From assembly GCA_963666315.2 (NCBI GenBank), contig CAXXHG010000043.1, forward strand, positions 128,001-192,000: 64,000 nucleotides of DNA, in the 5' to 3' direction. Within the stretch, counting starts at the first letter, position 1; each line of letters begins with the position of its first letter. The position numbers were made by a program, and so were the translations under genes. Below are positions 1 to 57,091 of the stretch, piece by piece. The notes below the pieces were generated by a model. It worked only from the letters and a program-made list of their open reading frames with translations. It did no database searches and was not told where the DNA came from. The DNA comes from Candidatus Binatia bacterium (GTDB lineage: Bacteria; Desulfobacterota; Binatia; Bin18).

Positions 1-131
1 CCACTCGTCGAAGTTTTCGCATATTTGCCTCCTTGTCCAAAGCGAACTGCCGCCTCAGCGTCCGGTACGTAATCCGCACGTCGCTCTTCAGTAAGGCACG
101 GGTTTGCCTGATAACCTCAAAGAAAATCCAT
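1..131 (-). pseudogene. N-terminal stub (copy A) of cyclase-AAA-TPR family gene, frameshifted, runs off the window edge
   Basis: Reverse strand from ATG at 131 reads MDF/(frameshift)FEVIRQTRALLKSDVRITYRTLRRQFALDKEA, matching the N-termini at 3210 and 57091. Confidence 0.75.
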
Positions 132-153
132 ATCCGTCTGCCAGTCGCGATGG

Positions 154-183
154 ATTGTACAAGAGTGAAGCAACCGGGGATAG
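154..183 (-). promoter_or_regulatory. Putative promoter of cyclase copy A (CTATCC-N18-TACAAT)
   Basis: Same hexamers and spacing as upstream of copies at 3210 and 57091; -10-like box 22 nt from ATG. Confidence 0.55.
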
Positions 184-284
184 AATCGTCCCTAGCGCGT
201 CTTTACTCCGGGGCCCGATCCGGCATAAGTTGACACAGACCGGTTCCCGCTCCCGCTATGCTCACCCCAAAGGAGATAACAATC

Positions 285-575
285 ATGCCACTGTATTTAG
301 ATGAAATCTATCTCAACGCCAGCAGCCCCGAAGCCGCGAAAAAAAGCGTCGGTCTCATCCAACAAGTCCTCAAGGACGGGTTTCCGCCCGGAGTGACCCT
401 CAAGGCTGGGCCATGGGGATCGAATGAAGAGGCCAAAGTGGTGCTCATCCTCGATATCCAGGACCACTCGTTGACCTTTGACGGCTTTGCCAAAGCGGTC
501 AGTGCCGGTCTTATTACGAAACGGCGTCTGACACCTTTGGTAGAATGGAGCGCTGTGGAGAAAGCCATGAGTTGA
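285..575 (+). CDS. Small hypothetical protein, DUF3303-like
   Basis: AGGAG RBS then ATG at 285; FPPGVTLKAGPW...VVLILD...LTPLVEW resembles DUF3303 proteins. Confidence 0.6.
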   Translation: MPLYLDEIYLNASSPEAAKKSVGLIQQVLKDGFPPGVTLKAGPWGSNEEAKVVLILDIQDHSLTFDGFAKAVSAGLITKRRLTPLVEWSAVEKAMS

Positions 576-722
576 TATCCGCACGCTACCGACTGCGTCA
601 CATCCCAACTGGCGGTGAGCCGGAACCGACTGAAGGGTAGGGGACCCGTCTCAAGCACGCGGAGCTCTCGTCTCGCACTATAACTGCTCCGATATTCCCA
701 CAGACATTTCCGCAAGCACCCG

Positions 723-811
723 AAGCGCAAATTCCCGCTTGAGCACTCGGTACGTTATCCGGCCCGTCGCTGCAGGGCGCGAGATTGTTCGTTAATGTCG
801 GTGAAATTCAC
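723..811 (-). pseudogene. N-terminal stub (copy B) of cyclase-AAA-TPR family gene
   Basis: GAGGGGAG RBS-like sequence, GTG at 811: VNFTDINEQSRALQ/(frameshift)GRITYRVLKREFAL. Confidence 0.7.
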
Positions 812-931
812 CCGCTCGTCTCCCCTCATAGACCAACTCCACCGATAAGAGCAGGCAAGCAGGCGGCGGACAATGTGTGTCGGAGCAGGGCTGTCCTTGC
901 CCTACGCCTCCATGCGAAAGCAGGCCGGCTC

Positions 932-2277
932 CTACTCTGGAGCAGGCTGATCCTGCACAGGAAGCGGAGCAAGTTCCGCAGTATCGAGCACCACAGGCTT
1001 GCTGGCATCAATCCGGAGCCACACCAGCGCGCCCACAAGAGTAAGGAACACCATCACATAAATGGCGACCTCCCAGCCAAACCGATTCGCCAAGATCGGG
1101 GTGAGGGTCGGTGCGAGTACCCCACCCAAGATAGTCATGATGTTGGCGAACCCATAGGTCACCCCAGTGTACGGGCCACCAATATCTATGATCGTGGCAA
1201 ACGCGGACGCAGCGGACATATATAAAAAGCCATCCCCCAAAGACAGTAATACGATGGCCACATACGGGTCCGCCGCAGTTGCCCCAATGCCGGCACACAC
1301 CGCGCTCAGGACCAGGCCGACAATCGCCCCGGCGCGGCGGCCGTGCTTGCGCCCATATCGCCGGACCAGTGCGTCAGACCAGATCCCGCCTAAGGGACCG
1401 AGCAGCGCCACGGCTATGAAGGGGCCGGTGGCAAACATGCCCCCCCGAGTTCGCTGAATCCGCGCTCATTCACCAGGTATAGATAGAACCAGGCTTGATA
1501 CAGAAAGACTCCATAGCCCATGCAGAAGCCCGCGCTCCCGAGCAACCACACATTGGTATTGGTCAGCAAACGACGCCAGGGGATAATCGCGTCGGCGGCA
1601 CTCGTCAGGCGAGGATTATCGCCACGAATGTGCTGCAATTCCTGTGGGCTAATCTGAGGGTGTGTCTCAGGCTCATCAGTCACGTAGGTGTACCACCGAA
1701 TGGCGAGCCCGATCCCGATGAACGCAAACATGTAAAACGACACGCGCCAGCCGTACTGCACCATGAGGAAGGCTACGATAGGCGGCGTGATTGCATAGCC
1801 GATACCCATACCACTCAGGACGAGCCCGCCAGACGAGGCCCGCTCATCCGGGGCCATCCAACAGGCCAGCAGCCGGGTTGACCCGGGATAACATGCCCCT
1901 TCGGCCAAGCCAATGAAAAAGCGCACGACGAGAAAGGCCGCAAACGGTCCCAATAGCGAGAGGCCCGGCACCTGCGGGGCAACGGCGGTGAGCGCGGTAA
2001 ACACGGACCACCACACGAGTGCGGCACCCAGCAGCTTGCGCGGCCCCAGCACATCGGCCAACACGCCCCCGGGCAGATGAAAGGCCGCATAGCCCAAGAG
2101 GTAGACTGAGTAGAGGACGCCGATCTGCACCTCGGTCGGTCCATACTCTGGCATGATTTGCTTGGCGGCCACCGAGAAGTTCACCGCGTCCATACTGCGC
2201 ACCACGCTGATCAGCACCAGCAGCCAGACGAGCCTCCAGCGGATCGAAGACACGCCGGTCATGGGTGGTGCCCCCAA
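932..2277 (-). pseudogene. MFS transporter (anion:cation symporter-like), frameshifted
   Basis: ORFs 1414-2277 and 932-1438 form the two parts of one MFS (GVLADVLGPRK, GIWSDALVRRYG); break at a G7 run (C at 1440-1446 on +). Confidence 0.85.
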
Positions 2278-2329
2278 CTGCCGTCCTTCTCCACGGCCAG
2301 CTCACGGGCGTCGGGGAGCGCTGCTCGGC

Positions 2330-2444
2330 GCGTATCGCAGCCCTGATCATTCCTGGCGCATGCACGCGGAAGAGTCCTATACCTGATACGACCGGATTCT
2401 CGGAGGAGCGGGCGCGCTGCTTTAACGACTTCGGAGAATCTCAC
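2330..2444 (-). pseudogene. N-terminal stub (copy D) of cyclase-AAA-TPR family gene
   Basis: VRFSEVVKAARPLLRESGRIRYRTL...; GTG start overlaps the stop of copy C (GTGA at 2441-2444); lower boundary approximate. Confidence 0.7.
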
Positions 2445-3210
2445 ACAGCCTCCGACAGTTCGTCCAGAACCGCCTTGGCGTCTTTCAAATCTGCCGTGTC
2501 AAAGCCTTCAGTGAACCAGTTGAAGACCGGAGCGAGAAGGTCACAGGCTTCAGCCGTTTTTTCCTGCCGCTGCCACAGGCAAGCGAGGCTCGTGGCGGCA
2601 CGGAGCTCTAGGGACTTGGCTTGTTGATTTTGAGCAATTTCGATGGCCTGTTGAAAACATTCTTCTGCTTCCTCTTCGATCCGTGACCTGTCGCTTTCTA
2701 CTTGCGACTTTTTAAGCGTCAGCTCCCCTTTGAGCCGATACAACTCCGCCTCATAGAAACGCGCCGGTTCGATGGTGGCGCGAGCGTCTTCGGGATCGAG
2801 TCCTTCGATCAGCGCCGTCGAGCCCTTGAGGTCAGCAAACAGGGCGGTTATCGTTTTGCGCTCGCGTCACTCGCCCCTCGGGATTCCATAGCTTGCTGTT
2901 CGGCCCGGATACGCGCGGCTAGGCGTTGGGGCGTGTAGCTGGCTAGGGTCTGGGGAATAGGGGTTGGGGGTCGGACTCGGGATGCAGCTTCTCCGTTTCC
3001 CCGATTCTCGGTTTCGTTTCCCTCTCCTATCCAGACAAGAATCTTATCGTCTTCGTCCGAGGCCACTCGCTCGGAATCAACCAACTCGACCTTGATGTCC
3101 TCAAGATATTCATAATCCAGATCAAACTGACGTTTCAAAGCTCTATGAGAAATCCGGCCTTTACTCCGCAACAGCGCACGCGCTTGGTCGAGGACATCGA
3201 TAAACGTCAT
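2441..3210 (-). pseudogene. Cyclase-AAA-TPR gene (copy C) with frameshift and large internal deletion
   Basis: N-module MTFIDVLDQARALL..., frameshift near 2864, then TITALFADLKGSTALIEGLDPEDARATIEPA fused in frame to the C-terminal RFYEAELYRLKGEL...WFTEGFDTADLKDAKAVLDEL. Confidence 0.9.
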
Positions 3211-3232
3211 GTTCTCCCCACTTGGAGAGGCG

Positions 3233-3262
3233 ATTATAGGAGAGAAAAGCCGGGCAGGATAG
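3233..3262 (-). promoter_or_regulatory. Putative promoter of cyclase copy C (CTATCC-N18-TATAAT)
   Basis: Consensus TATAAT 22 nt upstream of ATG 3210; upstream hexamer identical to copy A. Confidence 0.6.
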
Positions 3263-3282
3263 CTTTATGCCTTCGGGCCGGT

Positions 3283-4260
3283 CTACGGTACCAAAACAAC
3301 CTTACCGTAGGCTTTGCCCTCTCCACTCACTGCCCGGTGAGCTTGGGCCGCTTCAGCGAGCGAGAATTCTTGCCCAATGACGGGCTGGAGGGTGCCATTG
3401 GCGAGCCCAGCCACAAGCGAGGCGTGGATGCGGACAAGGTCTTGTGGCGTCGCGTTGCGTAAAGTCATGCCGATAATCGATGCGTCACGCATCATGGCCG
3501 CACGTGGGTTAATCTTAACTGTACCTTGGTTCTTCTCCCCCCGATTGCCAATCACGATAACACGTCCCCGCATTGCAAGCAGATCAATATCTTTGCCAAG
3601 ATTGACGTTCGCCAGCATCTCTAAAATAACATCCACTCCGTGCTCGCCGGCCAGCGTCTTGGCCTCTTCTAAATAGGACGGCGCGCTGTGGTCAAGGACG
3701 TGCTGCGCACCCTGTTCAGCTACCAACTGACGCCCGCGTTCGGTACTCGCCGATCCAATTACCGTCATGCCAGCCGCCCGAGCAAGCTGGACACCGGCAA
3801 TGCCAACTCCACCGCTCGCCCCATGTACAAAAAGCGTTTCACCAGGCGCAGCATGTCCGCAGTGGAAGAGCGCTTGGTAGGCGGTCGCATAAGGGACAAA
3901 AATCGCGGCCCCTTGGGCAAACGCTGCAGACTCAGCTAGCGAGTGGACCTGATTTTCCGTACACAGAGCCTGTTCCGCATACGATCCGCTGAGTGACCCA
4001 GCGATATAGACACGATCTCCTACAGTAACACGGCTCACACCTTCGCCCACAGCCTCGATCACACCGGCTCCATCTGAGCCAGGGGTGTATGGCGTAGGCG
4101 GCTTGGGATAAATGCCGGAGCGAATATACGTCTCAACTGGATTGACTCCAGCCGCATGCATGCGTACGACGACCTGGCTAGGTCCGGGGGTGAGATCCGC
4201 GACCTCGTCTAGTTGCATCACCTCTGGATCACCAAACTCATGGACACGAATGGCTTTCAT
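3283..4260 (-). CDS. NADPH:quinone reductase (zeta-crystallin-like MDR)
   Basis: AAGVNPVE, YTPGSDGAG, HGASGGVG, GKVVL motifs. Confidence 0.92.
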   Translation of the reverse strand: MKAIRVHEFGDPEVMQLDEVADLTPGPSQVVVRMHAAGVNPVETYIRSGIYPKPPTPYTPGSDGAGVIEAVGEGVSRVTVGDRVYIAGSLSGSYAEQALCTENQVHSLAESAAFAQGAAIFVPYATAYQALFHCGHAAPGETLFVHGASGGVGIAGVQLARAAGMTVIGSASTERGRQLVAEQGAQHVLDHSAPSYLEEAKTLAGEHGVDVILEMLANVNLGKDIDLLAMRGRVIVIGNRGEKNQGTVKINPRAAMMRDASIIGMTLRNATPQDLVRIHASLVAGLANGTLQPVIGQEFSLAEAAQAHRAVSGEGKAYGKVVLVP

Positions 4261-4281: not shown

Positions 4282-5724
4282 CTACGATGCTGATTGCGCC
4301 TCGCCCGCATCTCTTGTCTCAAGCGCGGTCAACATTTCTTTGATCGTTGTCATTTTTTTACGCGGCTTGCCGATCTTTTTGCCTGTCTCGACTTCAATCT
4401 GATCAAGGTATTGCCAATCAGGAAAGGATACGGACCGCACGCCCTTCCGCGTGAGAAGAGCGAGGATAGCCTGCTCGTCGGCCGGTACAGCTTGGACGTC
4501 GGGCGGGGCCTGTCCGCTCCGAAAGTCCTCCAACATGAGCTGGACCGTCTCCACTGCATCGGCTTTATTTGTCCCTATTACGCCGGAAGGGCCACGCTTA
4601 ATCCAGCCAGTAACATACAGCCGCTCAATCGGCGCCTTGGTTTCTGGATCAATGACCCGCCCCGTATCATTCGGAATAATTCCGCCGCGTTCATCAAACG
4701 GAACATCTTTGAGGGGATGGCCTTTATAACCAATAGACCGAAAAACCATTTGGATGTTGGGTAACTCTTCGTATTCGCCAGTGCCACGCGCACGCAGCGT
4801 TCCCGCATCATCCTTCATCAAACGGTTCTTTTCGAGCTTCATTCCCTCGACGTGGTCGGTCCCATACAGTTCAACTGGAGAGACAAAAAAGCGGGCACGA
4901 ATCTTCCTCTGCGCAGAGCCCTCACCCTTAGGGATTTGGGCAATCAGAATATCCATATTGCGCTGATGGACCGGCTCTGTGGCCTGTTCCATAAATTCTT
5001 TATTCGCCTCGTCAAGTTCGAGATCTTTCGGCTCGACAACCAAGTCAGTAATAGGCATCTCGGAAAGTTCTCGAATTTCGGGATTGGTAAACGCCGCCTG
5101 GGCAGGACCGCGCCGCCCGAGCAGATAAATTTCTTTGACTGCACTTTTCTTGAGCGCCTCAAGCGCATAGTCTGCAATGTCTGTTATTGACAGCTCCTCA
5201 ATGGAACGCGCCAGGATACGTGTGACGTCCATGGCCACATTGCCATTGCCAACCACCGCCACACGCTCGACGTTGCTGAGGTCGAACTGGAGGTCACGAT
5301 AGTCCGGGTGTCCGTTGTACCAGCCGACAAAGATGGTTGCCGGATCACTGCCGGGCAGGTCTTCGCCTGGAATACCGAGCTGGCGATCAGATTCGGCTCC
5401 CGTTGCAAAAAGAACCTGGTGATAGTGCGCTAAGACATCGGCCAGCAGCAGATCCTCGCCAAAGGTCACATTGCCAAAAAACCGAAAGCCAGGCCGGTTT
5501 GCGATTTTCTCGTATTGTAGAATGACGGCTTTGATCTTTTGATGATCCGGTGCAACCCCACCGCGCACGAGCCCATACGGGGTGGGCAGCCGGTCAAACA
5601 AGTCCACGGTAATGGTGATATCTTTTTGCCGCAGCAATTCGCCTACGGCGTAGAATCCTGCCGGTCCGGAGCCAAAGACGGCCACGCGGAGCGGGTTAGT
5701 AGCGCTTCCAATCTGTTCTGCCAT
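4282..5724 (-). CDS. Ferredoxin-NADP+ reductase, adrenodoxin reductase/FprA type
   Basis: GSGPAGFYA, GLVRGGVAPDH, FVGWYNGHP, GNGNVAMD, GWIKRGPSGVIG; likely start MAEQIG at 5724. Confidence 0.92.
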   Translation of the reverse strand: MAEQIGSATNPLRVAVFGSGPAGFYAVGELLRQKDITITVDLFDRLPTPYGLVRGGVAPDHQKIKAVILQYEKIANRPGFRFFGNVTFGEDLLLADVLAHYHQVLFATGAESDRQLGIPGEDLPGSDPATIFVGWYNGHPDYRDLQFDLSNVERVAVVGNGNVAMDVTRILARSIEELSITDIADYALEALKKSAVKEIYLLGRRGPAQAAFTNPEIRELSEMPITDLVVEPKDLELDEANKEFMEQATEPVHQRNMDILIAQIPKGEGSAQRKIRARFFVSPVELYGTDHVEGMKLEKNRLMKDDAGTLRARGTGEYEELPNIQMVFRSIGYKGHPLKDVPFDERGGIIPNDTGRVIDPETKAPIERLYVTGWIKRGPSGVIGTNKADAVETVQLMLEDFRSGQAPPDVQAVPADEQAILALLTRKGVRSVSFPDWQYLDQIEVETGKKIGKPRKKMTTIKEMLTALETRDAGEAQSAS

Positions 5725-5919: not shown

Positions 5920-6945
5920 ATGAGTGAGAACGGGAACCCCAAAATTCGCTTTGGCATGTGGTACGACTTTCGCAACCCGCCAGCCTGGAAACGTCCATAT
6001 GACCAACTCTATAACGAAATTATCGATCAGATCGTGTGGGGGGAAGAGAACGGCTTTGATAATATTTGGCTGTCTGAGCACCATTTTATTGAAGACGGCT
6101 ATTCGCCTGCGCTGATGCCGATTGCAGCCGCAATCGCCTCTCGGACTAAGAAAATCCACATTGGTACTAGCGTTATGCTCATGCCTTTCCATAATCCGGT
6201 TCGGCTTGCTGAAGATGCCGCGACCGTGGACGTGATCTCAAGTGGACGGTTCGAGTTGGGCGTCGGCGTTGGGTACAAGGTTGAAGAATTCGAGAGCTTT
6301 GGTGTGTCGAGCAAGGAGCGCGGAGCACGCACGAATGAGGGCCTCGAAATCATCCGTCGCCTATGGGAGGGCGAAACGCTCACGTTTGAAGGCAAATATT
6401 ATACGGTGACCAAGGCCAAGCTAACCCCAGAGCCAATTCAGCAACCACGGCCACCCATTTGGGTAGGAGGCTTTACTCCGCCAGCCCTCAGGCGGGCGGC
6501 GAAATATGGTGATGGCTATATCGGCGTCGGACCGCTCAAAGAAGCATATGAGCGCTATGTCACTGCGCTTGAAAAGATCGGCAAACCAACAACGGATATT
6601 CGCCTCGCCGGTGGCTATTTTTGGCTGATTCCGTCTGAAGATCCCGAAAAGACTTGGAACGAAGCAGCCGAACACGTGCGTTACCAGATCAACGCCTACG
6701 CGAAGTGGTCGGAGATGGCCGGCATGCCACTGTTTCCCCATATGCCGGATCTGACAGCGTTACGGGAATCTGGTATGTTCCAAGTGGTCGACGTGGACAC
6801 CTGTATTCAGATGATCCGCGACTATGCTTTAGAGACTCCATTAACGCATTATTATTCTTGGACACTTCCTCCAGGACTACCGGCAAGCTGGATTCAGCCG
6901 CACTTGGAGCTCTTTGCGAGTAAGGTTATTCCAGCGTTTCGGTAA
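5920..6945 (+). CDS. LLM-class flavin-dependent oxidoreductase
   Basis: WLSEHHF, RLAEDAATVDVISSGR, PPIWVGG luciferase-like motifs. Confidence 0.92.
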   Translation: MSENGNPKIRFGMWYDFRNPPAWKRPYDQLYNEIIDQIVWGEENGFDNIWLSEHHFIEDGYSPALMPIAAAIASRTKKIHIGTSVMLMPFHNPVRLAEDAATVDVISSGRFELGVGVGYKVEEFESFGVSSKERGARTNEGLEIIRRLWEGETLTFEGKYYTVTKAKLTPEPIQQPRPPIWVGGFTPPALRRAAKYGDGYIGVGPLKEAYERYVTALEKIGKPTTDIRLAGGYFWLIPSEDPEKTWNEAAEHVRYQINAYAKWSEMAGMPLFPHMPDLTALRESGMFQVVDVDTCIQMIRDYALETPLTHYYSWTLPPGLPASWIQPHLELFASKVIPAFR

Positions 6946-6978
6946 TTTGATCATGATCTGGGTAGACAGGAAACAGAT

Positions 6979-7848
6979 ATGGACTTGCAGACACCCGGCG
7001 TTTTTACCTTTCTCGATGGCCTCAGCGGTGCGCAGACGGGCCAGTTTGCCCGCAAAGTCGAACAACTCGGCTATAGCGCTCTGTGGTTTCCCGAAGTCCT
7101 TGGGCGCGAGCCCTTTTCATTTGCGTCCTATCTGTTAGGCCAAACGGAACGGCTAGTAATTGCCACTGGCATTGTCGTGCCGTATGCCTACGAACCCATC
7201 GTTATTGCCAATGCCACACGCACGCTGGCAGAACTCTTTGGTGACCGTTTTCTTCTTGGTCTGGGTGTGAGCAATGCGCAGGCCAATGCCAGACGCGGCA
7301 TCCCATACGGCAAGCCGCTCAGTTTTACGCGTGAGTATCTCGCCAAGATGAAAGCGGCCCCATATAATGCTCCGTCTTCGCAAAACGATCCGCCCGTCGT
7401 ACTGGCCGGCATGATGCCGAAGATGCTTGAGCTTGCAGCAACACAGACCAACGGAACACATACCTATTTCAGTGTAGTTGAACAGATTGCAGCGACCCGC
7501 AAGGCCCTCGGACCTGAGCCATGGCTGTGTGCTGAGATCGGCGTGATGCTGGAATCAGACGCAGACAAGGCCCGCTCGGCCGCGCGCAGTTATATGCGGA
7601 TTTATCTCCAAGTTGACCATTATGTGCAGCGGCTCAAAGAAGTGGGCTTTGCGGCTGCTGACTTTGCTAATGGAGGCAGTGATCGGCTTGTGGATGCGGT
7701 CATTGCCTGGGGAGATGTGGCCAAGATTCGAGAGTCTATTGCGGCGTATTATGAGGCCGGTGCGTCACACGTATGCCTCATGCCACTAAGTTCTGGAGGT
7801 GGCATGAACCCGGACGAGCGAGCAATCGAAGTGCTGGCACCAAATTGA
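6979..7848 (+). CDS. LLM-class putative F420-dependent oxidoreductase (TIGR03620-like)
   Basis: ALWFPEVLGREPF, GDRFLLGLGVS, GGSDRLVDAVIAWG. Confidence 0.85.
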   Translation: MDLQTPGVFTFLDGLSGAQTGQFARKVEQLGYSALWFPEVLGREPFSFASYLLGQTERLVIATGIVVPYAYEPIVIANATRTLAELFGDRFLLGLGVSNAQANARRGIPYGKPLSFTREYLAKMKAAPYNAPSSQNDPPVVLAGMMPKMLELAATQTNGTHTYFSVVEQIAATRKALGPEPWLCAEIGVMLESDADKARSAARSYMRIYLQVDHYVQRLKEVGFAAADFANGGSDRLVDAVIAWGDVAKIRESIAAYYEAGASHVCLMPLSSGGGMNPDERAIEVLAPN

Positions 7849-8294
7849 TCAGGTTGATTTGTTGGTTGCTTAGTTCTTAACTCAACCCACTCGCTGTCGT
7901 GAAACCACGTCACTGCTTCATCTTCTGAATGAAAGAAGCGCGTTCTAAAAGTCCGTGGCTGGTCCGGATTGGCGCCAGCATCCTGAGCAGGAGAAAGCTG
8001 CGCATTCGGTCCGATGATATACCCCATCTTTTGAATGCCGACGGCATTATAGCGCGGGATAATTGCGCTATCTCGCCGCTGACCGATTTCTTCCGAGAGT
8101 GCAGGTTTAAAGCGCTGGACATCCACGAGCAAACAACGGGCGCTGTGTTGCTCAGCATGGCTAGCAAATCGGCTGAGAGCGTCTTTAAAATCAGCGTCCG
8201 TCATGTGCGCAGTCTTCTCAGTCCAGTCTATTTTCACGCTGGATACAGCTTCATCGTAGGAAATCTTCCACAGGTAATTTTGGTGCAGCTGCAT
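7749..8294 (-). CDS. STAS/SEC14-like hypothetical protein; C-terminus overlaps the convergent gene
   Basis: AAGGAGGA RBS before ATG at 8294; LLVDVQRF...IIPRYNAVGIQKMGYI...RFFHSEDEAVTWF pattern. Confidence 0.6.
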   Translation of the reverse strand: MQLHQNYLWKISYDEAVSSVKIDWTEKTAHMTDADFKDALSRFASHAEQHSARCLLVDVQRFKPALSEEIGQRRDSAIIPRYNAVGIQKMGYIIGPNAQLSPAQDAGANPDQPRTFRTRFFHSEDEAVTWFHDSEWVELRTKQPTNQPDQFGASTSIARSSGFMPPPELSGMRHTCDAPAS

Positions 8295-8388
8295 GAGGTC
8301 GTCCTCCTTTCTACATCGGAACACAGATCCCAGAGAGAAATCGGTAGTTGAGATGACTGGGCAGGCCTGGGAGCCTCCGCTTAGCCCT

Positions 8389-8702
8389 CTATCGACGAAG
8401 CGACGAAGCAAGCCGCGACAGCTTAGTAACGGTCAGACCATTCTCACTCCGCTCCTTGGTGCCCGCACTGAAAGGGCCAAAAAGCGGCAGGGCCTGCAGT
8501 CGGGAGCCAACCTCGCCGTTGGCCATCTGAATATGAAGCACGAAAGAAGCCCCATCTTCGGCTTTGTAAACGGAGTATTCGACCTCAGGATCATTCAAGG
8601 CCGGAATCGATCCGACCCATTCGCAGATAGCAGACTCCCGTTCCGCGACTTTATCCCCTTGATCGTGTATCGGACCAAAACAGTTGATGCTGGATTTTGC
8701 AT
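8389..8702 (-). pseudogene. Small ABM-like/hypothetical protein, frameshifted
   Basis: AAAGGAG RBS, ATG at 8702 MQNPASTVLVRYTIKG; after a shift in a G run it continues DKVAERESAI...NDPEVEYSVYKAEDGASFVLH. Confidence 0.55.
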
Positions 8703-8898
8703 AGAAGTCTCCTTTCTTTGTTTATGTTTGTATCAATCGTTGCCTCCTCCCTACTTGATAATACGAATATGGATAGAGAAAGGATACGTCTTTAGAAAAA
8801 TTTTCTTCTTCCCCTTCGACGTAGCCCTCGCTCGCCTTCTCAAATTCTCCGTTTGGTAGTATGTCTCTTCTTCATCAAGTGCAAAAAGGAGGGGCCTC

Positions 8899-9774
8899 AT
8901 GAAATTAGGGATTTTTGGTATCAATATGGGACCGTGCAGTACGCCGGAGGCTTCGGCGCGGGTGGCGCAGACGGCGGAAGCGGCGGGGTTTGAATCAGTC
9001 TGGGCAGGCGAGCACGTTGTGCTACCGGACCCGCAAGAGCCGCCTTCACCTCTGCCGCCGACCTACCCGATGCTCGACCCAAATATCGCTTTTGCCTTTT
9101 TGGCTGGTCAGACAAAAACCATTCGGATGGGAACCGGCATTATTATTCTTCCCCAGCGCAATCCGCTTGTACTGGCCAAAGAAATGGCCAGCCTCGACGT
9201 ACTGTCAGGCGGACGGCTCATCTTTGGCGTGGGCATTGGCTATCTCAAGCCGGAATTTGGTGCTTTGGGTATACCGTTTGCTCAAAAAGGGCCGCGTACG
9301 CTCGATTACGTCGAGGCCATGCGCGCCATTTGGAGCCAGGACGATCCAGCGCATCAGGGCCAGTTTGTGTCCTTTAGTGGCATAAAGGCCTTTCCCAAGC
9401 CCGTTCAGCAGTCAGGTCCGCCGGTTGTCTTCGGCGGTATGACGCCTCAGGCATTCCAGCGCTCTGTCACGCATGGGAACGGTTGGTACGGATTTGCGCT
9501 TGATGCGGACGGAACCAGGAAATGCCTCGACGGCCTCAAGGCCGCACAAGAGGAAAACAAACGGCCGAGCGAACTCGGCAAGTTGGAAATCAGTGTGACT
9601 CCGCTAGGGCGGGTAGATCTCGATATGGCCAGACGTTTCGCCGACCTTGGCGTGGATCGTTTGGTTTCGCTCTTTCCGCCCAAAGGGAAAGAACTCTTCT
9701 CGCTCAACTCCTCAGAGACAGAAATTACCGATTACATCAAAGAGGTGGGAGAAACGGTGGTCGGCAAGGTGTGA
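8899..9774 (+). CDS. LLM-class putative F420-dependent oxidoreductase (Rv2161c/TIGR03619-like)
   Basis: GFESVWAGEHVVLP, PQRNPLVLAKEMASLDVLSGGRL. Confidence 0.9.
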   Translation: MKLGIFGINMGPCSTPEASARVAQTAEAAGFESVWAGEHVVLPDPQEPPSPLPPTYPMLDPNIAFAFLAGQTKTIRMGTGIIILPQRNPLVLAKEMASLDVLSGGRLIFGVGIGYLKPEFGALGIPFAQKGPRTLDYVEAMRAIWSQDDPAHQGQFVSFSGIKAFPKPVQQSGPPVVFGGMTPQAFQRSVTHGNGWYGFALDADGTRKCLDGLKAAQEENKRPSELGKLEISVTPLGRVDLDMARRFADLGVDRLVSLFPPKGKELFSLNSSETEITDYIKEVGETVVGKV

Positions 9775-12190: not shown

Positions 12191-13207
12191 ATGAAACTCG
12201 ATAGCCTGATGACTGCTCGCTCGCTCGACGAAGCCATCGCCATAGCGCGGAACGCAGAAGACATGGGCTTTGACAGCGTGTGGAGTATGGAGAACCAGCA
12301 CGATCCCTTCCTGTCTCTCGCAGTCGCGGCGACTTCAACCACCAAGCTCAAACTCGGAACGGCGATTGCCCTGGCTTTCCCGCGCAGCCCCATGTCTTTT
12401 GCCTATACGGCTTGGGACCTCCAACGCGCCTCAAACGGGCGCTTCATCCTCGGACTCGGCACCCAAGTCAAAGGCCATAACCAACGCCGCTATAGCGTAA
12501 AGTGGGAATCTCCTGGTCCGAAGTTACGGGAAATTGTTCTCGCTCTACGCGCCATTTGGGACTGCTGGCAGAACGGGACCAAGCTGGATTTTCAGGGCCA
12601 ATTTTTTAGCCATACACTCATGACTCCAGCTTTTTCACCAAGCAAGATCAAACATCCACATATTCCAATTTATATCGCCGGTGTGAATCCATATATGTGC
12701 CGTCTGGCCGGCGAGTTGTGTGACGGCTTTCATGCCCACCCCTTTCACTCAGCGAAATTTCTACGCGAACGCGTACTTCCCCAGATAGAAGAAGGCGCCC
12801 AAAGGGCCGGCCGGAGCCGTAAAGACGTGGTGGTCTCAACCTCATCCTTTGTGATTATGGGTGACAGCCAAAAAGAGAGAGATGAGATGCGTGAGAAGGT
12901 GCGCATGCAGATTGCCTTTTATGCTTCGACACGGACGTATAAGCCCGTCCTCGATGTGCATGGCTGGGGCGACGTCTGCCAGAGCCTGAACGAGAAAGCG
13001 TCCAAAGGCGAGTGGGCAGCCATGGCCAAAGATGTCACGGACGAGATGCTTGAGGAGTATGCGATAACCGGCTCACCGGACGAGGTATCCGCCATGCTCA
13101 AGGCCAAATATGACGGGTTGCTGGATCGAGTAGCATTCTACCATCCAGATCGACCAGGAGTGAATGATGCGCGTTGGCGCAAAATTGTCGAAGCATTTTA
13201 CACGTAA
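12191..13207 (+). CDS. LLM-class putative F420-dependent oxidoreductase (TIGR03617-like)
   Basis: HDPFLSLA, ALAFPRSP, GLGTQVKGH, HTLMTPAF, QIAFYASTRTY. Confidence 0.9.
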   Translation: MKLDSLMTARSLDEAIAIARNAEDMGFDSVWSMENQHDPFLSLAVAATSTTKLKLGTAIALAFPRSPMSFAYTAWDLQRASNGRFILGLGTQVKGHNQRRYSVKWESPGPKLREIVLALRAIWDCWQNGTKLDFQGQFFSHTLMTPAFSPSKIKHPHIPIYIAGVNPYMCRLAGELCDGFHAHPFHSAKFLRERVLPQIEEGAQRAGRSRKDVVVSTSSFVIMGDSQKERDEMREKVRMQIAFYASTRTYKPVLDVHGWGDVCQSLNEKASKGEWAAMAKDVTDEMLEEYAITGSPDEVSAMLKAKYDGLLDRVAFYHPDRPGVNDARWRKIVEAFYT

Positions 13208-22174: not shown

Positions 22175-24036
22175 CTAACTGCTCTGGGATGTCTCTCGAT
22201 GACACGGCAACCAGATACGAAAAGTCGTCCCGTGTCCCACTTCGCTTTCGACTGTGACTGTCCCGCCAAGAAGGGTCACAAATCGTTTCACGATGTTGAG
22301 ACCCAGACCCGATCCTTTGAGGAGGCCGTTTGCCGAGTTATCGACTTGTTGAAAGGGTTCAAAGATGCGGGCCAGTTCGTCTGACGGAATCCCGATCCCA
22401 GTTTTGACCACGCTGATTTCGATGCCACCTTGCTGAGAGCGTACGACGACGCTCACACTCCCGTTTTGGGTAAATTTGACTGCATTTCCAATCAGACTTT
22501 TGACTATGACTTTGAGTTTGCGCAGATCCGTCTGCATGGGGGGCAGGTTTGAGTCTACGCTCCAGACAAACGAGAGCGAAGATTGATCTTGCAGCCCCTG
22601 AGTTTCAGCTTGGATCTCTGAGATAAGCGTACGAATTTCGACGGCCTGACAGTGCACGGGTAGCTGACCTGCTTCAAGGCGATTCAGATCGAGTAACGCC
22701 GTAATAAGATCGAGCAAATCTGTCGCACTTTTCCGAATGCGCTGCAGCCCCGTCCGCTGCTCAGCGTCTAGATTGCCGTTCTCGTCATCTTCCAGCAGGT
22801 CGCTATAACCAAGAATTACCGTAAGCGGAGTGCGAAGTTCATGCGACATGGTGGACAGAAATTCCGGCTTTGCGCGGGCGGCTTCTTCCGCCGCCTCCTT
22901 CGCATGCAGGAGTTCTCGTTCTGCCTTTTGCGCTCTGTCACGTCCCGATAGATGCCCTGAAAACCAGTCTGTCGTCCGCTGCTGTCACGGATAAACCGCG
23001 TGCGCCCTTCCGTCGTTAAAACGCTGCCATCTTGACACACCCATTCGACTTCGAAAATCGACGGGACCTTCTCCCCCGTCAGTATCCGTTGATGGTCGGC
23101 TTCCGCCTCCCGAGCAGCCTCGGGTGTCAGCCAGGTGCGATAATGCGTGCCACACATCTCTTCACGCGACCGGCCCAACATCAATTCGAGACTCCGGTTC
23201 ACGGTGAGTACTGTTCCGTCTAAGGCAAAGGTAGCGATACCGTCGCTGGTATTTTCAAATAGCTCCCGATAGCGCATCTCCGATTCATGCACGGCGTCCT
23301 CAGCCCGTTTTCTCTCGGTGAGATCAACCCCATAGGCACGCACGAGCCGCATTTCCGGCAAGGGGGAAAAAGACGAGGCATAACACCAGCGTCCATTATC
23401 GACATCAACCCCCTGCACGGTGAGCTGCGTCTGCAGACACTCCTGAATAAGAGACATGAGATTAGCCGGAAGAATGGTGGGAAACGCAGTGTCTGAGAAT
23501 CCCACCTGTACGAGGAGATCCCTCATCGCGGGATTAGCGTAGACCATATTGGCATAGCTATCGAATTCGACGATGGGTCCGGGGCTCTCTTCCGGAATAG
23601 AAATGAGCCGCTGCCGCTCCCGCTCAAGTTCAAGCTGACGGCTGACATCTCGAAAAGAGATCAGCACTCCGCTGACCGACTCTTCGAGCAGCGGGATGCA
23701 TTCGCATTCAACAGGCTGTCGTCGTCCTCCCTGCACCTGAAGGAAGGTGAGTGTCGGGCGGACGGACCGTCCAGTTTGGAGTACGTAGTTGACTGGGCAG
23801 CCGACTTGGCTGCATGCATCTACTTCCTGGCTGGCGGCGTCTGCTTCAATATGGCACTGGGTACGCCGAAAAGACTGTCCATGACAATCGTCCCCCCGCT
23901 GTCCAATCAACTTTTCCCCTGCAGGGTTGATAAAGAGGATCTGCCCGTTGGTATCAACGCAACACACGCCAAACGGAATCGCACGGACAAGCGCCTGGAG
24001 ATAGTCCGAACGCATGTCCGGTGCATCCGTCCTCAA
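22175..24036 (-). pseudogene. Multi-PAS sensor histidine kinase, frameshifted
   Basis: PAS repeats (INPAGE, DVTERK) then a shift near 22925 into AKEAAEEAARAKPEFLSTMSHELRTPL; G1 box degenerate (KTGIG). Confidence 0.85.
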
Positions 24037-24087
24037 GGTGTGTCAAAACAAGGAGTCTGGAAGGCCATGCAGCTAGTACCCTTCGGC

Positions 24088-25446
24088 TTAGCTGCCAACG
24101 ATGTCCATATTCTCGGTAGTCGGGTTGAGGACATTCCGAACCGTCCGCGGCTCATCCCCACTTTCATCCACAAGGTCAATAATCACTACCTCAGAAAGGG
24201 ACTGTCGGGCTCGATCAGTGACGAGTTTGACTGTAGGTTTGAGCGCATCTGTTGGGTTCGTAGCGATCACCACCCCACGCTCTCCGGTATTCAGCTCAAC
24301 AAGCGCACCAACCGGATACAGACCCAGAAAACGGATCAGCAGGCTGACCTGTATGGCGTCAAAGGCACCACACAACCCCATCTGGTAGAGTTCCCGTAGA
24401 GCCTGCGTTGACAACGGCGGAGGAAACTCACCATTCCCCTGCAGCATGGCATCATAGGTATCTGTCATGCCCACAATCTGGCTGAGCGTCGAGATCGTCT
24501 CGCCCTGGAGCCCGTAGGGATACCCGGATCCATCAGGTCGTTCATGATGCTCAATGACCACTCGACATACGTCTTCAGACACGCCGGAGCTGCGTAGCAT
24601 AACCGCTCCAAGTTCGGGATGTTTCTGCATCAACTTGCGTTCTTGGGGCGTGTACAGACCGCTTTTGCGTCAAATATTACGTGGCAAACGAATTTGTCCC
24701 ACATCATGCAGATAAGCACCTGTGGCCAAAGTTTGGAGGAGCTCGGAGACCAACTCTTGCCCCTTGCCCATAACGAGGGACAAGACGCACACATTCACCG
24801 TATGGGTAAACAACTCCGCATCGAACTGGCGAATCTGGACGAGAAATAACGACGCTTCCGGGCAACGCCACACACTGTCCATCAAGCCGTGTACCGCCGC
24901 CTTGATGCGGGCATCATTAATGCGGGCTCCGGTCCCCACCCCGTCAAAAACACTTTGCGCCGTTTTGAGGGCTTCTTTCCGAACGTTCTGCGCGTTTGCA
25001 AGTTCATTGTTGAGAGCGTTCAAAGCCGCCGGCCCTCTGCATTTGGTTGGCGCGGGTTCGGCATCCTCTTCAACTGCCATGGGCTTTTGCTCAGCCGCCT
25101 CAACCCTGACCGGTCGAGCCAGGTCCACACTAGGAGCTTCTTCGGAGACAACGCCAGGTTCTTGCAGAGATTCTTGCAGAGCCCTTGCCACTGGAAGAAC
25201 CGGCGGTGTAGACACAGCTTCGCTTGCACAGTCCTTGCCCGGTTCAGGAGCAATCGCGACCTGGCGGATGCCGGCCTGGCGTAATATATCGATATCATCT
25301 TCCCCGCAAATCCAACGCTTGTGGAAGAGAAATGGTGTCTTGAACCATGACTGATCTACTCCGACAAGGAACATGCCGGCGGTCAGCTGATCGATGTGAA
25401 TCTGCTTACGCATAACTTCCCCCGTTTGCCTCTCGCTCAGGAACAC
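24088..25446 (-). pseudogene. HD-GYP c-di-GMP phosphodiesterase with nonsense codon
   Basis: LHDVG, in-frame TGA at 24670-24672, then HHERPDGSGYPYG; both ORFs in the same frame. Confidence 0.85.
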
Positions 25447-27062: not shown

Positions 27063-27858
27063 TGTGAGGTGGGATGAGGGTCGCCCTTACGCGGCCTCCA
27101 GACACGTTGTCACGTCGCGCCACGTCGCGAAAGCTCGATCCCGACACAGCCGATAATGGACCGCCCGCATCAGGTGGCGTCCAAGCCGAAAGAGATTATT
27201 GAGAGGTCCGTGGACGGAGAGAAACCGTTGGACGTGGCGTGGAGATTTAAATCGGCGCATCTGTCGTTCCCGCTGCCGGGTGGGTTGGTGTGAGACTTCG
27301 GCGCGGTTGTTGACGTACGGCCTTGTGCAGTGAGTCACCGACGGCATAATATCTCGGTGGGCTGCCCCATAGCTGCGCAGCTGGTCGGTGACCAACTGAT
27401 TTGGTACGTACTGTAACCCCCTCAACAACTTGCGGAAGAAGCGCTTGGCTGCCCCGGTATTCCGGCGTTTTTGCACGAGAATATCTAACACCTGCCCATC
27501 TTGATCCACGGCTCGCCACAAGTAGTACCGCGCTCCGCCTATCGTGATAAACATCTCATCGAGATACCGTGTATCGCCTGGTTGACCCGTCGATGGCGCA
27601 GCTTCTTGGCGAACGCCTGCCGAAACTTGAGACACCATAGGCGTACGGCCTCGTAGCTGACGATGACGCCACGCTCAGCCAACATCTCCTCGACATCCCG
27701 GAAACTCAGACTGAAGCGTGATACAGCCAGACCGCATGGCTGATGATCTCTGGGGGAAAGCGATGCTTTCGATACAGACTTATGGTACGAGAACTCATGC
27801 TCCAGTTACGGCATACGAAGCCGCCTTCTGGCAAGTCCCTCGATAACTTGACAGTACC
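27021..27858 (-). mobile_element. IS6 family insertion sequence
   Basis: Perfect 15-bp terminal inverted repeats GGTACTGTCAAGTTA (27021-27035) and TAACTTGACAGTACC (27844-27858). Confidence 0.92.
27087..27798 (-). pseudogene. IS6 transposase, frameshifted
   Basis: YRKHRFPPEIISHAVWLY... shift near 27590 ...YLDEMF, YLWRAVDQDG, VTDQLRSY, NNRAEVSH. Confidence 0.9.
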
Positions 27859-28925: not shown

Positions 28926-28947
28926 CCGTTAGCAAACCGTTAGCAAA
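28926..28947 (+). repeat. 11-bp tandem repeat, candidate integrase arm-type sites
   Basis: CCGTTAGCAAA x2, about 70 bp from the tRNA 3' end. Confidence 0.6.
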
Positions 28948-28978
28948 TGACTCGGTAGTTGGCGTGACTCATAAAGGC

Positions 28979-29013
28979 GAAAGCCCCGAAGTTATTGAAC
29001 TTACGGGGCTTTC
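28979..29013 (-). terminator. Hairpin immediately downstream of the tRNA
   Basis: GAAAGCCCCG...CGGGGCTTTC 10-bp perfect stem. Confidence 0.6.
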
Positions 29014-29016
29014 ATA

Positions 29017-29092
29017 GGTTGCGGGGCTAGGATTTGAACCTAGGGCCTCGAGGTTATGAGCCTCGCGAGCTACCGGACTGCTCCACCCCGCG
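29017..29092 (-). tRNA. Initiator tRNA-Met (CAT)
   Basis: CGCGGGGTGGAGCAGTCCGGTAGCTCGCGAGGCTCATAACCTCGAGGCCCTAGGTTCAAATCCTAGCCCCGCAACC; C1:A72 mismatch, CAT anticodon. Confidence 0.95.
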
Positions 29093-53711: not shown

Positions 53712-56700
53712 CTAAGGACCTCTCCTCCGCATCAAGCCCTTATCGAACGCGCGTTTAATCTGGTCAAGAAGGAGCGTCGAGTAACGCCTTTGCCTCTTGT
53801 AAATCTTTGGTATCAAAGCCTTCGGTGAATCAGTTGTAGACGGGAGCGAGGAGGTCGCGGGCTTCTTTCGGCTTCCCCTGCCGTTGCCACAGCCACGCCA
53901 GGCTCGTGGCGGCGCGCAGTTCCCAGGACTTCGCTTCTTGCTGTTTGGCAATATCGATGGCCTTCCGAAAACACCCCTCTGCTTCTTCGCCGTTGAACCT
54001 AGAACCTTGAAGTTTGAAGTTTTCCAGTATCAACTCCCCTTTGAGCCGATACAGCTCCGCTTCATAGAACCGCTCGTCGGTTCGCTCGACAAAAGCCAAC
54101 GCCTCGGCCACCGTTCTGAGCCGGCTCTCAACCTGCCCGTCTTTCCCGTAGGCCTCGGCCAATAAGGCAAGAAACTGCGACCGCCACAACTCTGACCCCG
54201 TGGCCCGCCAGGCATCCAGTCCCCCACGTGTCTGGCTGAGGCCTGCTGCTCCATGCCCTTGGTGGACTAGTGCCCAACCCCGCAGAATAGTTCCCGACGC
54301 CAAGAAGAGCGGAAAGCCCTGCTCGGTCGACAGCGCAACGAGGGCCTCGGCTCGGTCTTGGGCCCTCGTTGCTGCCCTTCAGCGCCTGCTCCGGATAGCC
54401 CAGATGCCACAGGGCTATGGTCGTATTGCAGAGACAGGCTACTCCAGGGTCAAACGACCCTTAGCTGAACGCCAAAGAAAGGTGCTGCGGGGCGTCGTAG
54501 AGTGCACTCCCCTGCTCCAGGCGAGTGCGGCCAGGGGCGAGGTCTCCCTGGTAGAACAAGCTGGACCCCAACGCCAAATGAGCCTCCAGCAGGAGAGCGG
54601 AGTCTTGCTGGCTTTGGGCCAAGCGCAGGAGTTGCTCGGCCAGCTCCTGTGCCGTCTTGTGCTCCGCCCGCGTAAAATAAAACGCAAGTAGCCCATACAG
54701 CGTCGGGAAGGTCTCAGACGTGTCCCCCATCTGCTCACACAGCTCCCGTGCCCGTAGGTACACGTTCCCCGCTTCCGGGACAGCCCAGCTCTTGGTGGCA
54801 ACGAGTGGCACGCCCAAGGCCACCTGCAGCACGAGCTCATGCTGGCTGCGCTCCGGACTGTCCGGCAGGGTCTGGAGCAGCTCGATGGCCGTGATGAAGT
54901 GGCCGACCGCTGCACGGTCTGGTGGCCAGCCAGCCCGAGATACGCGACGGCCTTCTCCGCATTCCCACTGCGACTGTAGTGATGTGCCAGTTCACTGTAG
55001 TGGTCGCCCACACGCGCCTTATTCAGCTCTTCCATCGCCTGGCCTGTCCGCTCATGTAACGCTTTGCGCTGCTCGTGCAGCACCGTGCCATACGCCACGT
55101 CCTGGGTCAGCGCGTGCTTGAAGACGTATTCCACCTCGGGAAACGCCGGCTGTTCATACAGAAACTCTTTGCGTTGGAGGGATACCAAAACCCGGTACAG
55201 GGTGTCTTCGGGCAGGGAGACCACTCCCTGGACCAGCCGCAAGGGAAACGCCCGGCCGATGACCGAAAGTTGCTGGAGCAGGGCTTTCTCATCGGGCGCC
55301 AGCCGGTCAATCCGGGCGGCAAGCACGCCTTGGACCGTCGGTGAAATGTGCAACTCTGGTGGCGTTGCCTCTAGGCGATAGTTTCCCCGCTCGCCGCTGA
55401 GCGCCCCTTCCTCGGCTAAGGTCTGCACCACCTCTTCCATAAAAAACGGCGTACCGTCCGTTTTCTCTAAGATGAGCGCCTTGAGTGGAGTGAGGCTGGC
55501 ATCCGTCCCCGGCAGAAACGACAGCAATTCCTCCGCTTCGTTCTTCCCGAGAGGCGCCAGGCGCAGCTGGGTGTAATACCTCTTCTGGCCCCACTCGTGG
55601 CGATACTCGGGTCGATAATTGACCAACAGCACGAGGGGGCACCGACCACGCTCTCACTCAGCGTATCCAGAAAGCCTTGGGTCTCGGTGACTATCCAGTG
55701 CAGGTCTTCGAAGATGAGAATGAGGGGTTGATTGAGGCTCTCGCGCAGGAAGAGTTTCTTGAGCCCGTCAAACGTCCGCTGACGCCGTATCTGGGCGTCC
55801 ATTTGTTGCAGGGATGAGCTGGGGTCTGCGATACCAAGCAAGGAAAAGAGATACGGCAGGGTCTCTTCGAGACTCCGATCGAGCATCAGGACTTTACCGC
55901 CGACCTTTTCTTTCCGTGTCCGTTCCTCATCGGTCGGGTCAATCTGGAAATAGGTCTTCAGCAGCTCAATGAGGGGCAGATACGGTGACGCCTTCCCATG
56001 CGACACCGCAAACACTTCGAGCACCAGACAGCCGCTTTGGGAGGTAAGTTTGAACTCGTAAAACAGGCAGGATTTCCCCAGCCCCGGCTCGCCTAGTACC
56101 CCCACGATTTGGCCGTGGCCGTCCTTGGCCTGCTCGAACGCCCGTTGCCGCTGGTCCAGCTCGCTGTGACGCCCCACAAAGCGCGTGAGTCCACGCCGGG
56201 CAGAGACCTGCAATCGAGTGCGGAGTGGGCCAGCGCCTAAGACCTCATAGACATTCAGCGGCTCTTCGACGCCTTTGATGTGCGTCTGGCCCAGGTCTTT
56301 GAACTCGAAGTAGCCGTCGGTGAGCTTATGGGTGTACGCCGTGACGAGGATAGAGCCGGGGGCAGCGAGTTGTTCCATCCGGGCGGCCAGGTTCGTGGAG
56401 TGGCCGACGGGGACATAGTCGGTATGCAGGTCGTCTTTGCGAATGGAGCGCACCACCACTTCGCCCGTGTTCAGCCCCACGCGCACCATGAGCGGAGCGC
56501 GTCCCTGCTCCCGGAGCGTATCCGCATACCCCCGCATCTCTTCTTGCATCCGCAGCGCCGCATACAGCGCTCGCTGCGGATGGTCTTCATGCGCGATCGG
56601 CGCCCCGAACAACGCAAAGATGCCGTGACCCAGCGCTTAGGCCACGTAGCCGTCATAGCGATGCACCGCGTCCATCATCAGTTGCAGCGCCGGATCGATA

Positions 56701-57091
56701 ATCGCGCGGGCGTCTTCGGGGTCGAGGCCTTCAATCATGGCCGTGGAGCCTTTGAGGTCGGCAAACAGCGCGGTGATGGTTTTGCGCTCCCACGTGATTC
56801 CATCGCCGCTTGTTCGGCGCGGATGCGCTCGGCTAGGTGCTGCGGCGTGTAGCTGGCAGGGGACTGGGAGGTAGTCTCCGACGCTTCTACCGTCTGCCCT
56901 CCTTCTCCATTCCATATGAGTCCCCGCCCGTCCGCTTCTGAAATCTCTGGATGCGAGAAGAGGAGTTCTTCTTTGAGGTCTTCCAGATATTGGTCATCCA
57001 GGCCGAAACGCCTCTTGATTCCCCGGTAGGAGAGTCGTTTGTCGCGCTCTAGCAGCGTTAAGACCTGTTCCAAGACGTCGTCAAATTCCAT
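53712..57091 (-). pseudogene. Cyclase-AAA-TPR (STAND-like) gene, copy E, multiply disrupted
   Basis: N-module MEFDDVLEQV..., TITALFADLKGS, FGAPIAHEDH, NLAARME, GEPGLGKS, FEDLHW, FKHALTQ, RFYEAELYRLKGEL; several stops and frameshifts. Confidence 0.92.

Follow-up and report, generated by a model that had tools for sequence, protein, structure and literature searches.

At the left end of the window, within the first 3,262 of its 64,000 nucleotides, four starts of what appears to be one and the same gene lie on the minus strand, with genes of other kinds between them. By the window we mean the whole stretch of DNA analyzed here, positions 128,001 to 192,000 of contig CAXXHG010000043.1 of the Candidatus Binatia assembly GCA_963666315.2. 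The initial annotation of this segment proposed that the repeated starts belong to an expanded family of cyclase-AAA-TPR proteins, whose conserved ends act as recombination anchors in a cassette-like capture of small genes. The question that the locus raises is whether it is a system of this kind or simply what is left of a gene family. From the analysis described here, segment 1-3262 is probably the decayed remnant of a tandem paralog cluster, left by birth-and-death turnover of an expanded family, and not a cassette system. Nothing in the segment acts as a system.

The 120-aa open reading frame (ORF) at 2848-3210 was used to gather 31 longer homologs. The 16 full-length ones among them, none from the window, were used to build a hidden Markov model (HMM) of the family, with which 2452 six-frame segments of the window were searched. 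A complete member is about 1150 aa long and consists of a winged-helix N-terminal module (N-module), a class III nucleotidyl cyclase domain, a STAND-like AAA_16 NTPase domain and TPR repeats; Pfam finds Guanylate_cyc (PF00211), AAA_16 (PF13191) and TPR in the same order in the full-length homologs and in the pieces of one of the window copies, copy E. The search identified five N-modules of this cyclase-NTPase-TPR family, four in 1-3210 and one at 57091. Their starts at 131, 811, 2444, 3210 and 57091, all on the minus strand, are those given by the initial annotation, and we refer to these copies as A, B, C, D and E, respectively. Each has an N-module at the start of the gene, with E-values from 0.024 to 4.8e-39. 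Taken as sequence matches, the five copies are far beyond chance. The six-frame search found no sixth copy in the window, and none of the five is intact. Cyclase, AAA_16 and TPR are in no case joined in a single open frame of about 1150 codons. All of these domains are present in E alone, where they are broken by four frameshifts and three stops. The four family starts of the initial annotation are thus real as N-modules, but none of them opens into an intact gene, the sequence that follows being frameshifted, cut to a stub or deleted.

Copy D (2441..3210, minus strand) has lost most of its interior. It consists of the N-module, the linker and the start of the cyclase domain, joined at a deletion junction (2762/2761) to the TPR end of the protein. 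The 5' piece, 3210-2762, encodes the N-module, the linker and the first 34 residues of the cyclase domain, and the 3' piece, 2761-2453, the final 96 codons of the TPR part, with the stop at 2441-2443. The corresponding HMM matches are 2854-3210 to model positions 1-110 (E 3.5e-37), 2762-2863 to 108-141 and 2453-2761 to 1052-1147. Matches between the DNA of D and E place the deletion at the equivalent of E 54074-56686, i.e. 2613 bp, in frame, with a microhomology of only 2-4 nt at the junction. The part of the cyclase domain that carries the GDG motif is missing. In addition, one base, a G, has been lost near 2860-2866, just before a conserved GERK motif, and the frame is shifted.

Homologs of D in other assemblies give an indication of the order of these events. 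The homolog on a 9395-bp contig (P0037) has the deletion junction of D without its frameshift, and the fusion can be read for at least 169 aa. On a 35844-bp contig from a JGI relative, D (P0038) is broken at a different place than in the window. A protein encoded on a 7.09-Mb contig from a further relative (P0001) is 83% identical to the first 119 residues of D, compared with no more than 57% for all other matches, and is likely, on the basis of this similarity, to be the ortholog of D. Since P0001 extends over at least 748 aa with no deletion, the one in D would be younger than the split from the 7.09-Mb relative, and further lesions would have been added since.

The neighboring copy C (2259..2444, minus strand) is a 61-codon ORF that holds only a diverged N-module of 55 codons. 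It is colinear with the N-module up to model position 56 (2277-2441, model 2-56, E 1.4e-6), lacks the last strand of the N-module fold, and differs at 4 of 12 nearly invariant positions, where K26, F29, L31 and D32 are replaced by P, C, R and N, respectively. The GTG start of C (2442-2444) overlaps the stop codon of copy D, the copy that starts at 3210; this stop is the TGA at 2441-2443. This GTGA overlap had been noted in the initial annotation, with the letters of the two copies swapped or ambiguous. At its other end, the TGA of C (2259-2261) overlaps the ATG (2260-2262) of a gene for an MFS transporter in the sequence ATGA. The copies were once arranged head to tail, the stop codon of one overlapping the start codon of the next. 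They are what remains of paralogs of an expanded cyclase-AAA_16-TPR family, as first proposed, and at least eight members are present in the 7.09-Mb relative.

Copies B and A are shorter still. Copy B (720..811, minus strand) is a stub of about 31 N-module codons with a GTG start at 809-811, in which one base of a G run has been lost after codon 16. It matches the HMM at 723-767 (model 17-31, E 0.024) or, when read with an X at the break, over model 2-31 (E 3.9e-4); past model position 31 there is no similarity to the family in any frame. Its closest relative in the window at the DNA level is copy A, with 71% identity over 89 nt, and A and B are the closest pair of N-modules. Copy A (1..131, minus strand) is a 5' remnant that runs out of the window. 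Its frame is shifted at codon 3-4, right after the ATG at 129-131, where a T run has one T too many, and the HMM match (26-124, model 3-35, E 3.6e-7; E 1.9e-7 when read with an X at the break) stops at model position 35, the final 25 bases being unlike the family. No family sequence other than the N-modules was found between the stubs with the HMM, and no C-terminal fragment precedes B or A. Close intact orthologs of A, B and C were sought among the longer proteins; six matches were obtained, with identities of 31-48%, none from close relatives.

Copy E (53773..57091, minus strand), 54 kb away, is a full-length pseudogene. Eight HMM pieces in changing frames cover model positions 1-1145, with a gap at 923-951; the N-terminal piece, 56780-57091, matches model 1-106 (E 4.8e-39), and Pfam detects Guanylate_cyc, AAA_16 and TPR_12 in the pieces. 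The frame changes near 56783-56840, 55635-55638, 54895-54913 and 54360-54372, and there are in-frame stops at 56637-56639, 54461-54463 and 53830-53832, in place of the Q, Y and W of homologs. When the full-length homolog P0016 was compared with E by tblastn, the alignment fell into five segments in frames -1, -3, -2, -1 and -2. E also reads GHG in place of the catalytic cyclase motif GDG that is found in the eight homologs compared; the Asp of GDG is presumably a metal-binding residue. Among the 31 homologs there is no clear ortholog of E, the best identity in the N-terminal part being 67%. The G+C content of the family copies and the MFS gene (1-3000 and 54001-57000) is 0.56-0.62 per kb, compared with about 0.50-0.57 for most of the window.

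D and E are both broken just before the GERK motif (2860-2866 in D, 56783-56840 in E). A frameshift common to the two copies was considered and rejected, as D has lost one G and E has lost 13 nt between short direct repeats. Because the lesions differ, they were not inherited from a common broken ancestor and arose independently. The same stretch is the 5' junction of two fusions of N- and C-terminal parts found elsewhere (P0172 and P0193, described below), and it may be a slippage-prone spot.

The initial annotation regarded the genes between the stubs as cargo. The MFS transporter gene, of the ACS/glucarate type, does lie there as described (932..2262, minus strand), and is itself frameshifted, at a run of seven G residues (1440-1446); each half is recognized by Pfam MFS_1 (E 2.9e-42 and 3.2e-17), and homologs that are intact, with lengths of 436-446 aa, show 72-88% identity. 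In P0062, the homolog encoded on a related JGI contig, the frame stays open across the G run but is shifted at a different point further on. If the difference at the G run is not a sequencing error, at least two strains would thus be losing the gene independently of each other. The other gene, at 285..575 between A and B, is on the plus strand, opposite to the stubs; it encodes 96 aa and is the only intact gene in 1-3262. Its exact protein sequence is found on five public contigs, and its 90% cluster has seven members, one of them on the contig of the 7.09-Mb relative. Its description as DUF3303-like finds no support, since the protein matches no Pfam family at E<=1, DUF3303 (PF11746) included, and no NCBIfam model. 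In a protein-atlas feature search the nearest clusters were hypothetical proteins of Binatota (scores 0.98 and 0.96), and a DUF3303 cluster came at rank 7 with a score of 0.92, which is only a lead. The taxa of the atlas clusters and the names given to MFS homologs suggest that the host is probably a Binatia-like bacterium (Binatia/Binatota). Scans of 1-3400 for promoters and terminators gave results at or under the level of shuffled sequences.

In exact-sequence look-ups the window genes were located on a contig of 759,374 bp. Relatives were compared by means of protein look-ups and 90% clusters, and the co-location of genes on a contig was judged from equal contig sizes. On this basis, the exact C ORF, the MFS fragment and an ADH gene would lie together on a 4311-bp contig of another assembly, D and ADH on the 9395-bp contig, and D, ADH and MFS on the 35844-bp contig; a contig of 438,936 bp is also among those linked by 90% clusters to D, ADH, MFS and the C ORF. 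The arrangement ADH-D-C-MFS thus appears to be fixed among the relatives. Synteny of this kind had been named in advance as an observation that would speak against the shuffling of captured genes, and the same arrangement does recur in the assemblies of close relatives. The 7.09-Mb contig (7,087,377 bp) carries 8 of the 31 homologs. These are 238, 278, 470, 511, 748, 810, 1148 and 1170 aa long, i.e. only two exceed 1100 aa. The family there seems to be expanded and mostly broken, or else this assembly has insertion-deletion (indel) errors.

We think it probable, then, that segment 1-3262 has reached its present state by decay. The copies would have been eroded by illegitimate deletions at the level of microhomology, by small indels and by substitutions. 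D would first have lost 2.6 kb of its interior and gained its frameshift later, while C and B would have been reduced to 5' stubs, A left with a broken start, and E, 54 kb away, kept at full length as a pseudogene. Such a pattern would be expected where a large and rapidly evolving family turns over in bacterial genomes, with their bias toward deletion. The survival of 5' ends may have a simple cause: deletions that begin inside a copy and run downstream would leave its start in place, and the first 35 or so codons, being the most strongly conserved, would remain recognizable the longest. The differing lesions of P0037 and P0038, and that of the MFS homolog P0062, indicate that decay is ongoing and independent in different strains.

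Two further loci were found when genome contigs were scanned with the 120-aa ORF of D. These loci, L001 and L002, were the only ones obtained from 249 candidate stretches; both are from one Candidatus Binatia metagenome-assembled genome and contain only fragments of the family. The order in L001 is a C-terminal fragment beside an integrase fragment, an N-part, a luciferase-like gene, a C-part and the next N-module. The N-part (6975-7556) covers model positions 1-200, the luciferase-like monooxygenase gene (7670-8686) is intact, and the C-part (8719-8853) covers model 1103-1147. Directly after the C-part comes the N-module of a third copy (model 1-36), the start of which is in a TGATG overlap. 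Together with the overlap of D and C, this shows that tandem, translationally coupled copies are a habit of the family. In L002 an N-part is cut at model position 199.

Some other features of these loci should be noted. The ends of the two N-parts, L001 7541-7556 and L002 724-736, belong to paralogs that are 77% identical in DNA and are cut at model 199-200 after the residues MRGYS, past which the two loci continue with different sequence; a homolog from the 7.09-Mb genome (P0011) is frameshifted at the same residues. A phage-type integrase fragment (L001 4891-5340, minus strand) abuts the family C-terminal fragment of 51 codons (5370-5525), and a truncated UvrA-like gene (422-2089) lies further left, so that the region resembles a junkyard of broken genes. 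Synteny of L001 or L002 with the window was considered and rejected, the sole link being the luciferase-like gene, which is of the same Pfam family as four window genes and 32% identical to the nearest of them. Genes for luciferase-like monooxygenases are abundant in the window, at 5920-6945, 6979-7848, 8899-9774 and 12191-13207.

Several observations weigh against decay as the whole explanation. Three or four stubs end at similar depths (model position 31 in B, at least 35 in A, 36 in the third copy of L001, and about 25 for the well-conserved part of C), which would not be expected of deletions at random. The intact luciferase-like gene of L001 is placed exactly between a family N-part (1-200) and a C-part (1103-1147), and L001 and L002 are both cut at model 199-200. 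The GTGA and ATGA overlaps that join C to its neighbors look orderly. Finally, three of the four single-base frameshifts in 1-3262 are in homopolymer runs (the T run of A, the G run of B and the G7 run of the MFS gene) and are possibly sequencing errors; if so, an intact form of at least the MFS gene might be present in the strain from which the window comes.

Some of the alternatives draw on the distribution of the N-module in other genomes. The module comprises about 62 residues (3025-3210 in D, 56906-57091 in E). No Pfam model was found for it, and our literature search found nothing on it, nor on cyclase genes in Binatota. An AlphaFold2 model of the module (mean predicted local distance difference test score, pLDDT, 93.3) has helices at residues 3-17, 22-29 and 33-46 and strands at 19-21, 50-53 and 57-60. 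This topology, H1-strand-H2-H3-hairpin, is that of a winged helix in the predicted structure. The best Foldseek matches in PDB include many winged-helix domains, with TMq values up to 0.81 and E-values of 0.021 or weaker. On this model, the winged-helix assignment of the module is a high-confidence prediction.

When 1.84 billion representative proteins were searched with a profile of the N-module, 4898 clusters matched (E<=0.001). Among the best 150 of these 4898 matches, 44 have two tandem N-modules, followed in some cases by the cyclase (P0107, P0113), and nine have internal jumps. The latter include fusions of N- and C-terminal parts that resemble D, P0172 (207 aa) and P0193 (219 aa), both in frame and with natural starts and ends. 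P0187, also among the best 150, joins an N-part to the latter half of an MFS transporter. The rearranged variants are singletons on contigs of 1-12 kb, except for P0193, which has three members on three contigs. It should be noted that only in-frame fusions are visible as single ORFs in protein databases, and their detection is biased accordingly. The median length of the matches is 149.5 aa. The spread of match lengths was considered as a measure of stub frequency and rejected, because full-length members, being more than 50% identical, collapse into few clusters; many of the short ORFs may also have been cut by contig ends. We regard the mosaic and truncated variants from other metagenomes as a lead, rather than as evidence for a system.

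In one alternative the remnants have been kept for a function. A mini-protein of the D type, a winged helix with the last TPR helices, could be a small regulator or a decoy, and C could be a short ORF through which translation of the MFS gene is tied to the operon that precedes it. The deletion in D is in frame, its fusion is open in P0037, and similar in-frame fusions exist elsewhere in P0172 and in the three members of P0193; D, C and the MFS gene are joined through GTGA and ATGA overlaps, and they share a strand with the ADH and oxidoreductase genes that lie upstream. However, D is frameshifted in the window and broken elsewhere in the JGI relative, C has substitutions at four nearly invariant positions and lacks the last strand of its fold, the MFS gene to be served is broken in two strains, and the in-frame state of the database fusions is subject to the detection bias just mentioned. 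A retained function is thus unlikely.

We are also doubtful that the family is unusually prone to rearrangement at preferred places, these being the segment immediately ahead of the cyclase core, model positions of about 100-110 and about 200, and the beginning of the last TPR block at about 1051. If this were so, it would produce in-frame mini genes composed of a winged helix and a TPR end, genes with a double winged helix, and copies with a replaced interior as in L001, and would amount to recombination-driven diversification or re-wiring of a bacterial STAND receptor family. The stubs in the window would then be by-products, and tandem 5' stubs could be the raw material for proteins with two N-modules.

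The proposal that the conserved ends are recombination anchors, between which a cassette-like process swaps or captures small genes, finds its best examples outside the window. The luciferase-like gene of L001 lies between a family N-part and C-part, directly followed by the next N-module, and the internal jumps in nine of the best 150 of 4898 matches and the MFS fusion of P0187 could be read in the same way. The independent fusions in D/P0037 and in P0172 have 3' junctions only 1-2 codons apart, at model 1051-1052. By estimate, with no computed test, one near-coincident junction among about ten deletion variants is not significant, and all of the variant proteins except P0193 are the short-contig singletons described above. 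Within the window, the interleaved genes do not stand between an N end and a C end of the family, since no C-terminal fragment precedes B or A; the MFS "cargo" is itself decaying, and the related assemblies that could be traced show no difference in arrangement. Nor do the DNA sequences provide for such a process. The N-modules of the five copies are 53-71% identical where they can be aligned, and the longest exact run that they share is 6-8 nt, far under what homologous recombination requires. No motif is common to the nine breakpoints examined (those of A, B, C and D and five in L001 and L002), a single 9-mer being attributable to chance. No repeats of 14 nt or more flank the MFS gene or the 96-aa gene in 1-3400; the repeat search of this segment returned three short direct pairs and one inverted pair, none of them at gene borders, and that of the whole window only the similarities of D and E. 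Finally, no recombinase adjoins the stub array in a Pfam scan of 75 window ORFs. We consider anchored capture very unlikely.

The initial annotation had stated that there is no integrase nearby. This holds for the immediate surroundings, but a frameshifted tyrosine integrase gene, a tRNA gene and the remnant of an IS6-type transposase lie about 24 kb from the stubs. The integrase gene (27852-29017, in frames 27852-28358 and 28217-29017) is the only gene of the integrase family in the window. The tRNA gene (29019-29092, minus strand), directly beside it, is the only Rfam find. The IS6/IS240-type transposase remnant is at 27087-27638; by eye, its N-terminal part appears to continue in other frames to about 27890. 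Segment 27087-29092 looks like the remains of an integrated element. Beside the IS6 remnant, window 27758-27858 has a 100-nt similarity to L001 8962-9061 (E 0.001), which is unproven.

That the segment is an artefact, in which repetitive paralogs were mis-assembled in a metagenome bin and homopolymer errors added to a genome that is really intact, would fit the draft state of the assembly (its longest contig is 759,374 bp), the three of four frameshifts in homopolymer runs, the split appearance of a histidine kinase gene (22175-24036) and an HD-GYP gene (24088-25446) elsewhere in the window, and the many short public ORFs of the family that stop at the beginning of the conserved cyclase core, as they would if contigs had broken at repeats. 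We give this explanation very little credence, because the D junction is reproduced in P0037 from another assembly and the exact C ORF on a further contig, the three substitution-type stops of E and its change from GDG to GHG are beyond indel errors, the copies at 53-71% identity are too diverged to be collapsed by an assembler, and four frameshifts in the 3.3 kb of E and four in 1-3262 compare with just a few in the roughly 57 kb that remain.

The two split genes just mentioned were further characterized. The PAS-PAS histidine kinase gene is in two parts, 22816-24036 and 22175-22849, with a 34-nt overlap, and its HisKA match begins at profile position 9. The DUF3391/HD-GYP gene is in parts 24670-25446 and 24088-24633, with an HD_5 match from profile position 77. 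The split genes in 22175-25446 would be either further pseudogenes or the result of indel errors in the assembly. The vapBC pair reported to follow copy E was also found, at 52992-53629 on the minus strand downstream of E. It consists of an antitoxin gene of the AbrB/MazE type (53405-53629) and a PIN toxin gene (52992-53408), which overlap at 53405-53408. The Pfam matches (MazE_antitoxin, E 2.5e-10; PIN, E 5.2e-9) and the overlapping order qualify it as a pair of the VapBC type; in NCBIfam, the AbrB domain model scores 42.8 bits, above its cut-off of 28.3, and the VapC model 33.6 bits, under its cut-off of 80.

For annotation, reading segment 1-3262 as a decayed paralog cluster means that the five ORF fragments are best described as remnants of one family and not as separate small genes, and the MFS gene as disrupted. 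Of somewhat wider interest, this widespread family has an N-terminal module, predicted to be a winged helix, for which there is no Pfam model, and truncated, mosaic and internally deleted forms of the family are unusually common in several genomes.

Among known proteins, the closest type are the multidomain class III cyclases with an AAA/STAND ATPase and TPR or helix-turn-helix (HTH) parts, which we take to be exemplified by Rv0386 of Mycobacterium tuberculosis. The cyclase, AAA_16 and TPR domains have the same order in the full-length homologs and in the pieces of E. The present family differs in having an N-terminal winged helix and no C-terminal LuxR HTH, and the five copies in the window are all fragments or pseudogenes. 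The body of the protein also resembles NCBIfam TIGR03903 (TOMM system kinase/cyclase fusion protein), with which P0016 shares the cyclase-NTPase-TPR part over model positions 280-1266 of 1267 (E 2.8e-141). The 472.7 bits of P0016 are under the curated cut-off of 705.75, and the kinase part of the model is unmatched; where TIGR03903 has an N-terminal protein kinase (1-279), the P0016 family has the winged helix. In PADLOC there were no matches to a STAND defence model, and solely the cyclase domain matched, to Pycsar cyclases.

As in an integron cassette array, short unrelated genes lie between repeated elements derived from one family, mostly on one strand. The window differs from such arrays in that it has no adjacent integrase, no attC-like repeat and no shared junction motif, in that one of the interleaved genes is on the other strand, and in that the elements are stubs of coding sequence too diverged to pair. 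A further parallel is the birth-and-death evolution of STAND receptors, described for the NOD-like receptors (NLRs) of fungi (PMC4986451, PMC13449251). The family described here is likewise an expanded one, of NTPases with a repeat sensor; its copies stand in tandem, many members are truncated or dead, and the core is conserved while the N-module and the repeat end vary. It shows no sign of an immune role. If the pattern of fragments is real, and not an effect of assembly or clustering, the family would exemplify in bacteria the birth-and-death dynamics of eukaryotic NLRs.

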